Source: Escherichia phage ECO103 4-12-1. Taken from it: DNA of 59,406 nt. Below the pieces are notes generated by a model. That model saw only the letters and a program-made list of their open reading frames with translations. It was not told the DNA's origin and ran no database searches. The DNA lies in the sequence record OR844651; one strand, written 5' to 3'. Position 1 is the first letter of the stretch. Every line of letters starts with the position of its first letter. A program made the position numbers and the translations under genes. Below, piece by piece: positions 58,413 through 59,406 of this stretch.

Positions 58413-58616
58413 CTATTTCCAGCCGCATAGCCGTTCGCCGATTTCATCGTGGGTGGCGATCTGCCGTGCGGTTTCATCTGTCAGCACGTCTTCCTCGCCG
58501 ATGTAGATGGCGCGCGCGACAGAACAGAAAGACGGCGCAGGGTTAATCCTTTCGACGCATCCACTTACGGCGAAGCAGATCGTTAGCGCCACCATCAGGG
58601 AGTTTATTGATTTCAT
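58413..58616 (-). CDS. o-spanin (Rz1-like outer-membrane lipoprotein), embedded out of frame in the i-spanin gene
   Basis: start at MKSINSL; signal peptide with lipobox VSGC; Pro-containing mature part; overlaps 58543..58616. Confidence 0.55.
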   Translation of the reverse strand: MKSINSLMVALTICFAVSGCVERINPAPSFCSVARAIYIGEEDVLTDETARQIATHDEIGERLCGWK

Positions 58617-58797
58617 TATGCACCTCGGCCACATTTTTATCCGCGTTTGCCTGTTCCCGCAACGTGTCATTGTTCTGGTTATTAATCTGATCCTGTTTGC
58701 CCTTCGTGCGTCCTGCCCGCCAGACGCCGAAGAGGGCCACAACGAAAACGAGCGCCGCAAGGACGCCCGTCTTAATCCGGGCGAGTAGCCCCGTCAT
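58543..58797 (-). CDS. i-spanin (Rz-like)
   Basis: start at MTGLLARIK (ATGA overlap with lysin stop); TM helix GVLAALVFVVALFGVW then charged coiled-coil segment. Confidence 0.55.
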   Translation of the reverse strand: MTGLLARIKTGVLAALVFVVALFGVWRAGRTKGKQDQINNQNNDTLREQANADKNVAEVHNEINKLPDGGANDLLRRKWMRRKD

Positions 58798-59406
58798 GCA
58801 GCGGCCCCGGCCCGATGTTTCCGGTACGCGACCCATCCCATGTACAGGCCAATCGCGATTGTGGCCGCGCCGAATGCGATGCGTACCCAATCACCGGAAG
58901 AAATATCGCCGTGGGCGCTGTCCATCGCAGCCTTGACGGGCTGCACCATGTCCACCAGTTGAGCCGCACCGAGTCCGGCCACGCTCGTCGCGGCCACGGT
59001 GGTACGGTTAACAGGCTTGGCCGCCTTAACGATGCCCGCCCGGCGCAGACCTTCCTCGATCACTTCGTCCGAGTACCACGTATTCGCGTTGCTGTACGGC
59101 GTCAGGCCGAACGCTTCCGGGTTCCCGTTTTCGTGGCGGATGATGCCTTCCACCAGACCGCGCATGGTGTCATAGTCGTGGAGGTTCAGCGTTTCGCTGT
59201 TCGGGTCAACTGCCAGAACGGCGGCAACCTGTTTAGCGTAGGCCGATACGTTGTTCTCAACGGCGGGTGCCCACCGCTCGATAACTTCTCGCACCGAGTC
59301 GATTTTGCTACCGTCATTCGCTTTGCGCTTGTCGTAGTAGGTGGTCAGAGTGACGGCAATGGCGCGGATGCCGGATGCCGGGTCTTTGAACTGTGCGAAG
59401 CGGCTG
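58794..59406 (-). CDS. lysis-cassette protein (putative endolysin-like), C-terminal ~204 codons; N-terminus continues at 178..78 across the wrap
   Basis: in-frame continuation verified by hand; C-terminal hydrophobic helix WVRIAFGAATIAIGLYMGWVAY. Confidence 0.4.
   Translation of the reverse strand, partial: SRFAQFKDPASGIRAIAVTLTTYYDKRKANDGSKIDSVREVIERWAPAVENNVSAYAKQVAAVLAVDPNSETLNLHDYDTMRGLVEGIIRHENGNPEAFGLTPYSNANTWYSDEVIEEGLRRAGIVKAAKPVNRTTVAATSVAGLGAAQLVDMVQPVKAAMDSAHGDISSGDWVRIAFGAATIAIGLYMGWVAYRKHRAGAAA
59330..59406. repeat. second copy of the 77-bp terminal duplication
   Basis: identical to bases 1-77. Confidence 0.95.

Follow-up and report, generated by a model that had tools for sequence, protein, structure and literature searches.

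The DNA analysed here, a stretch of 59,406 nucleotides (nt) from Escherichia phage ECO103 4-12-1 (sequence record OR844651; below, the window, by which we mean the whole stretch), carries at its two ends the parts of one group of minus-strand genes. These junction genes are very probably (at a rough probability of 0.8) the standard late lysis cassette of a chi-like phage, split by the arbitrary start of a circular assembly. In order on the minus strand they encode a 112-amino-acid (aa) holin-like protein, a 237-aa lysin with a membrane tail at its C-terminus, an 84-aa i-spanin and a 67-aa lipoprotein o-spanin. The curated record of phage Siskin holds the identical four genes in identical order (holin, endolysin with two transmembrane domains [TMDs], I-spanin, and O-spanin with a lipobox), and the order given in the original prediction for this DNA (holin-like, lysin, i-spanin, o-spanin) agrees with that annotation and with the published accounts (PMC6498227, PMC7143992, PMC8943055). 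Both the cassette and its membrane-anchored endolysin have already been described in phages that are 99-100% identical at the protein level, and neither is new.

Self-comparison of the window ends shows that bases 1-77 recur as an exact copy at 59330..59406. This terminal duplicate is an assembler overlap, of the de Bruijn type, that marks a circular contig, and removal of one 77-bp copy leaves a true circle of 59,329 bp. Re-circularising the sequence, a check proposed with the original prediction, gives an intact lysin open reading frame (ORF) across the join: the minus-strand segments 178..1 and 59329..58794 (equal to the 178..78 plus 59406..58794 given originally) make up 714 nt, that is, 237 codons and a stop, without interruption. 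The 5' part of the gene (1..178, minus strand) supplies codons 1-59 and the first base of codon 60, and the 3' part (58794..59329, minus strand) supplies the rest of the protein, which starts MAKQKPRGIRNNNPGNIEWG and ends GWVAYRKHRAGAAA. The claim that the N-terminus is recovered by reading across the wrap holds up, in that the same ORF is contiguous in linear phage records. In the independent linear assembly of Salmonella phage Ariobarzanes, window positions 57900-59329 map to 42189..40760 and positions 1-25000 to 40759..15760; because the window ends are adjacent there with zero gap, the join is real. The lysin gene is also contiguous in other independent linear phage genomes, and the reconstructed 237-aa protein is identical over its full length (100%) to proteins in other phage records and to a database cluster of 89 member sequences; with the gene intact and the same in many genomes of separate origin, a frameshift or stop in the 77-bp overlap is unlikely. 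Chi, Utah and Siskin are reported to have the 12-nt cos overhang GGTGCGCAGAGC (PMC6498227), which we located at 40791-40802 in the window. This puts the ends of the virion DNA some 18.5 kb away from the window junction, so that the lysin gene is never physically split and the junction is a mere assembly cut. The window shares 98-99% identity with many chi-like phages of Salmonella, and the genome, judged by sequence similarity, is a Chivirus (Casjensviridae) of the chi-like Salmonella siphophage type.

We searched PHROGs, Pfam and NCBIfam with the four cassette proteins and the PDB with the lysin. None of the four had a significant match in Pfam or NCBIfam, and the informative sources were PHROGs, the PDB and direct homology only. 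The lysin matches PHROG 873 (endolysin; E 8.6e-83), and its residues 5-162 match PDB entry 7Q47, the catalytic domain of the phage Enc34 enzyme (E 1.5e-74, phmmer). An AlphaFold model of the lysin, built on an alignment of 42 homologues, has a predicted local distance difference test score (pLDDT) above 90 across residues 1-160 and superposes on 7Q47 with a Foldseek target-normalised template modelling score (TM-score) of 0.94 and a root mean square deviation of 2.2 Å. A muralytic fold, on the presence of which the original prediction had staked its reading of the gene, is thus found. In a Foldseek search of the PDB at E ≤ 0.001, 7Q47 was the sole match, and the distant link to GH73 and GH23 reported in PMC8943055 was not reproduced. 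Residues W79, Y90 and E126 are invariant in both of our lysin alignments (A1, 8 sequences; A3, 42 sequences) and correspond to W79, Y95 and E131 of Enc34, which were named as catalytically important, the Tyr and Trp positioning the substrate (PMC8943055). The protein belongs to the PHA02564 family and is a glycosidase-type peptidoglycan hydrolase; its fold is all-helical and lysozyme-alpha-lobe-like, and its catalytic Glu is residue 126. Its sequence identity is 99% to M4Lys of Salmonella phage BSPM4 (two substitutions), 99% to Siskin gp38, 75% to Enc34 ORF39, and 51-62% to the lysins of Kokobel1, E21 and Aeromonas phage vB_C4, and by this measure it is the orthologue of M4Lys and Enc34 ORF39. 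The identities of the parts rest on matches such as these, and the enzyme activity on the near-identical M4Lys: Bai et al. (2020) found that M4Lys lacking its TMD degrades peptidoglycan and has N-acetylglucosaminidase activity (PMC7143992), and Cernooka et al. (2022) solved the structure of the Enc34 catalytic domain and demonstrated its muralytic activity (PMC8943055).

The lysin is laid out as a catalytic domain (aa 1 to about 160), a basic linker (152-168), a first hydrophobic segment (H1), an acidic loop (188-207), a second hydrophobic segment (H2) and a basic tail. The original prediction had noted a single C-terminal hydrophobic helix, unusual for a soluble endolysin; a membrane segment is indeed present, but the hydropathy profile has two peaks (170-188 and 208-228), a weak H1 and a strong H2. 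H1 (about 169-187, TTVAATSVAGLGAAQLVDM) has a mean Kyte-Doolittle value of about 1.0 across homologues and consists to 57% of Gly, Ala, Ser and Thr; H2 (about 208-228, VRIAFGAATIAIGLYMGWVAY) is followed by only nine residues, the basic tail RKHRAGAAA. Transmembrane prediction, also proposed at the outset, thus confirms a hydrophobic C-terminal domain in the lysin and finds TMDs in the holin-like protein and the i-spanin. Averaged over the 42 homologues, the net charge is +3.5 in the flank before H1 (which holds four to five conserved basic residues), -1.7 in the loop between H1 and H2, and +2.6 in the tail. This alternation, read with the positive-inside rule, points to a topology with the N-terminus in, the loop out and the C-terminus in, and the curated Siskin annotation likewise predicts two C-terminal TMDs with both termini inside. 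With only nine residues beyond H2, insertion must be post-translational. Five residues of the tail (Q183, A194, S204, G205 and G213) are invariant in the 42-homologue alignment. Residues 1-160 contain no hydrophobic window, and the N-terminus (MAKQKPRGIRNNNPGN) has neither a signal nor a signal-anchor-release (SAR) segment; we rejected a classification of the lysin as a SAR endolysin, the defining feature of which is a weakly hydrophobic SAR TMD at the N-terminus.

The tail is seen only in fusion with a PHA02564-type catalytic domain, in Casjensviridae and in phage-plasmids of about 110 kb related to SSU5 and pHCM2. Searches with the C-terminal 80 aa (tblastn against 50,697 phage records; PHROGs) returned no stand-alone relative, every match being the same fused lysin, and comparison with the holin families of Pfam and PHROGs gave zero similarity. 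A small membrane protein of Ralstonia phage RS138 was considered as a relative of the tail and rejected, because it belongs to the unrelated PHROG 1322. In this Mu-like phage (locus L007, 1495-2177) the catalytic domain stands alone as a 146-aa endolysin and is followed by the membrane protein, of 81 aa, as a separate gene product.

The holin-like gene ('lysis protein B'; 182..520, minus strand) encodes a product that matches PHROG 7686 (E 6e-58) and is 100% identical to BSPM4 ORF_37 and to the Siskin 'holin'. A GAGGA ribosome-binding site lies 8 nt 5' of its ATG, and the ribosome-binding site of the lysin gene is located within its final codons. The protein has a single TMD at about aa 22-42 (with a rough insertion energy of about +1.5 kcal/mol for residues 24-40), beyond which a C-terminal domain of some 70 residues is charged and coiled-coil-like. 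It has the structural traits of a holin: it is small, contains a TMD, ends in a charged domain and is encoded directly upstream of the lysin; it has no holin match in Pfam or NCBIfam, and its PHROGs label is 'Rz-like spanin'. A similarity to P2 LysB (TIGR03495, E 0.013, 15.8 bits against a cutoff of 92.75) was judged not significant. The label 'holin-like' in the original prediction is reasonable by position, but the only experiments on the identical protein, ORF_37, were negative (PMC7143992); 'holin' is here a positional guess. The gene is conserved beside the lysin across several genera. In the SSU5/pHCM2-like phage-plasmids (locus L008, 2666-3946; a Cronobacter contig of about 110 kb) the lysin, at 51-55% identity, follows an unrelated 107-aa protein whose TMD is C-terminal, and in Aeromonas phage vB_C4 (locus L006, 1-2600) the tail gene and the lysin have no holin-like ORF between them; the lysin therefore has no fixed upstream partner.

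From the conserved charge pattern and the short stretch after H2 we infer the topology of the lysin and an order of events. The lysin would be made without a signal sequence, and its tail would enter the inner membrane post-translationally and independently of Sec, as a helical hairpin in which the basic linker and the basic tail are cytoplasmic and the acidic loop is periplasmic. The folded enzyme would thus wait at the cytoplasmic side of the membrane, out of contact with the wall. At the time of lysis the membrane would be breached by the accumulating membrane domain of the lysin itself, by the 112-aa partner or by both, with the upstream protein probably timing or modulating the breach; the enzyme could then reach and cut the peptidoglycan, and the overlapped i-spanin/o-spanin pair would afterwards disrupt the outer membrane. 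That such a hairpin leaves the catalytic domain in the cytoplasm is a sequence-based prediction to which we give a little better than even odds.

Not every observation favours this hairpin model. On the Hessa scale of 2005 the sum for H1 is about +4.8 kcal/mol, which is marginal, whereas that for H2 (about +1.1 kcal/mol) lies in the range of the other TMDs of the cassette; these values are rough and ignore position effects. AlphaFold places tail helices at 168-178, 185-198 and 206-232, splitting H1 into two short helices, with a pLDDT of 39-63, and at such low values the model does not decide the topology. The authors of the M4Lys study, using Phobius and Phyre2, predicted one TMD and a periplasmic enzyme domain, and they found that ORF_37 neither lyses cells alone nor releases M4Lys lacking its TMD (PMC7143992). 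The model also offers no clear route across the membrane for an enzyme tethered to the cytoplasmic face.

Other readings of the lysin were weighed against the same evidence. One is that the junction ORF is an assembly artefact, or a virion structural protein instead of an endolysin. Many GenBank records do name its homologues 'structural protein' or 'virion protein', labels that are explained by the occurrence of the catalytic-domain family within large virion proteins (T7-like internal virion proteins, tape-measure proteins and PDB 9VVP Gp29). However, the contiguity of the gene in independent linear genomes, on which we rejected the artefact, its place between the holin-like gene and the spanins, and the experimentally demonstrated muralytic and lytic activity of M4Lys and Enc34 ORF39 (PMC7143992, PMC8943055) make this reading extremely improbable, and for practical purposes it is refuted. 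We also consider unlikely an N-out, C-in arrangement in which H2 is the sole membrane-spanning segment and the catalytic domain lies in the periplasm, tethered so as to be inactive or out of reach until the 112-aa protein, acting as a pinholin, depolarises the membrane and frees the enzyme; this would be the mirror image of SAR endolysins. The hydrophobicity of H1 is too weak for a sure TMD, and this is the topology that Phobius and Phyre2 gave for M4Lys; full-length M4Lys alone lyses Escherichia coli in 20-60 min, so the enzyme does reach the wall, and the failure of ORF_37 to free the soluble, TMD-less lysin fits a small-hole holin (PMC7143992). The same idea was raised in PMC8943055. The four to five conserved basic residues before H1, however, disfavour translocation of that segment, the N-terminus offers no signal or SAR segment, and there is no known export route for the catalytic domain, which is soluble and harmless in the cytoplasm; moreover, sodium azide does not block M4Lys lysis (PMC7143992).

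A self-contained fusion of holin and endolysin, in which the tail is both hole-former and timer and the 112-aa protein a regulator or antiholin, is compatible with the hairpin topology and is a tentative possibility, better placed than release of a periplasmic enzyme. The layout of the tail (a weak, SAR-like H1, a TMD in H2 and a basic end) resembles that of pinholin S21-68, and the tail carries the five invariant residues. Among the experiments on M4Lys, the lysis by the full-length protein alone, the bacteriostatic effect of the TMD alone, the loss of lysis on removal of the 13 C-terminal residues, the slight delay of lysis on co-expression of ORF_37 and the harmlessness of ORF_37 alone were all reported in PMC7143992, and all but the truncation bear directly on this idea. 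The different upstream partner in the SSU5-like phage-plasmids and the missing one in vB_C4 also speak for it. On the other side stand the dissimilarity of the tail to the holin families of Pfam and PHROGs, the lack of a stand-alone tail homologue among phage records, the caution that lysis on overexpression from a strong promoter may not mirror infection (PMC8943055), and the retention of the holin-like gene beside the lysin across several genera, which implies that it is important. The more specific claim that the tail is a built-in hole-forming and timing module, making the lysin a natural self-exporting fusion regulated or antagonised by the 112-aa protein, we hold to be somewhat more doubtful still. 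The hairpin model with a cytoplasmic catalytic domain remains the reading that we prefer.

The spanin genes complete the cassette. The coordinates originally given for the i-spanin and o-spanin ORFs, as for the holin-like ORF, stand, and all three products have strong PHROGs matches. The i-spanin gene (58543..58797, minus strand; 84 aa) has an ATG that overlaps the TGA stop of the lysin gene (ATGA); its product matches PHROG 1026 'Rz-like spanin' (E 1.4e-23), corresponds to the I-spanin of Siskin, and has a strong N-terminal TMD (aa about 8-26) followed by a charged periplasmic domain. The o-spanin gene (58413..58616, minus strand; 67 aa) encodes a protein that matches PHROG 1275 (E 4e-24) and corresponds to the Siskin O-spanin with a lipobox. 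Lipobox prediction, again a check proposed earlier, finds in its lipoprotein signal the lipobox VSG|C at Cys20, with Val at +2. Under the Lol sorting rule a lipoprotein without Asp at +2, as here, goes to the outer membrane. The start of the o-spanin gene lies within the i-spanin gene at a frame offset of 1; the two have 74 nt in common, and the o-spanin gene ends 130 nt downstream of the i-spanin stop at 58543. It is therefore not embedded as in lambda Rz/Rz1, as had been supposed, but overlapped as in P2. The pair shows each mark of that class: a TMD in the i-spanin, a lipobox without Asp at +2 in the o-spanin, an out-of-frame start inside the i-spanin gene and an extension beyond it. The Enc34 spanins are likewise overlapped as in P2 (PMC8943055), and Kongari et al. 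(2018) listed Chi, Enc34 and their relatives as overlapped spanin families (PMC6139136). A 93-aa antisense ORF (58507-58788, plus strand) covers the i-spanin gene and is annotated in the BSPM4 record (BSPM4_0039), where the i-spanin is omitted; the family matches and the other records lead us to prefer the i-spanin.

Between the cassette and a 709-aa tail gene (583..2712) lies an intrinsic-terminator-like hairpin (542..562, minus strand) with an 8-bp stem containing five G-C pairs and a following TTTTTT run, and a terminator is annotated at the equivalent position in Siskin. We found no sigma-70-like promoter in window positions 1-900. Given this strong hairpin just upstream and the negative promoter search, the cassette may be expressed by read-through or from a non-canonical promoter. 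At the other end of the cassette the o-spanin stop (58413-58415, minus strand) abuts the stop of a convergent nucleoside deoxyribosyltransferase gene (57951-58412, plus strand) with zero intergenic bases, and no terminator-like site was found between the two stops.

Elsewhere in the window an imperfect 77-nt direct repeat (43274-43350 and 46051-46127, 82% identity), containing GGGAATTTAAAT...GATATACGCGGCGTGCGTCAA, may be a repeated regulatory element. Three database records named for Gram-positive hosts contain genes of this cassette: the chi-like lysin is matched at 99-100% identity by OR848973 (Listeria phage LM 4-14-1) and by GU169904 (Staphylococcus phage SA1), and the holin-like protein at about 30% by OR506460 (Enterococcus phage AS-M1_NWU), much as in the Proteus phages of this family. 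All three are probably mislabelled or contaminated.

The practical outcome is a corrected annotation: a circularised contig with the 237-aa endolysin across the join, both spanins and no antisense ORF. The export route of C-terminally anchored endolysins is an open question in the field, and the window adds nothing new on that route or on the holin role of the 112-aa protein. In Siskin, O'Leary et al. (2019) saw two potentially new classes, a holin of N-out, C-in topology and an N-in, C-in endolysin carrying two TMDs at its C-terminus (PMC6498227), and Cernooka et al. stated that the way in which the Enc34 enzyme gets to the wall is unknown (PMC8943055); our literature searches found no mechanistic study later than 2022. 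M4Lys is discussed in reviews of endolysins as antibacterials, so that resolving the topology has practical value.

Among known systems the closest is that of BSPM4 (KY620117), in which M4Lys, the product of ORF_38, is also 237 aa long, shares the C-terminal 80 aa exactly and has the same neighbours; there is no substantive difference from the window, although the BSPM4 record lacks an i-spanin annotation. Siskin gp38 ('new class of endolysin') and the gp37 holin likewise have the same terminator, ribosome-binding sites and spanin layout, with no differences (PMC6498227). Enc34 ORF39 shares the PHA02564 catalytic domain, the catalytic Glu, Tyr and Trp, a two-helix C-terminal domain and a cassette with overlapped spanins, and differs by a five-residue insert after the RWAP motif and by its host genus, Hafnia. 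Like the spanins of the cassette, both lambda Rz/Rz1 and P2 LysB/LysC combine an inner-membrane protein, bearing an N-terminal TMD, with a lipoprotein of the outer membrane, and the two genes use different frames of the same stretch of DNA. The overlapped layout is shared with P2, whereas the o-spanin gene of lambda is embedded; at 84 and 67 aa the cassette spanins are short, and they fall into the 'Chi' spanin families and do not significantly match the LysB or Rz models (PMC6139136). The SAR endolysins (such as P1 Lyz and phage 21 R21) are, like the lysin, membrane-associated and have a Gly/Ala-rich helix of weak hydrophobicity, and neither kind needs a large-hole holin to be able to lyse. 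Their membrane segment is N-terminal and Sec-dependent, however, whereas that of the lysin is C-terminal, behind a hydrophilic N-terminus and a different catalytic fold, and M4Lys lysis is insensitive to azide (PMC7143992).

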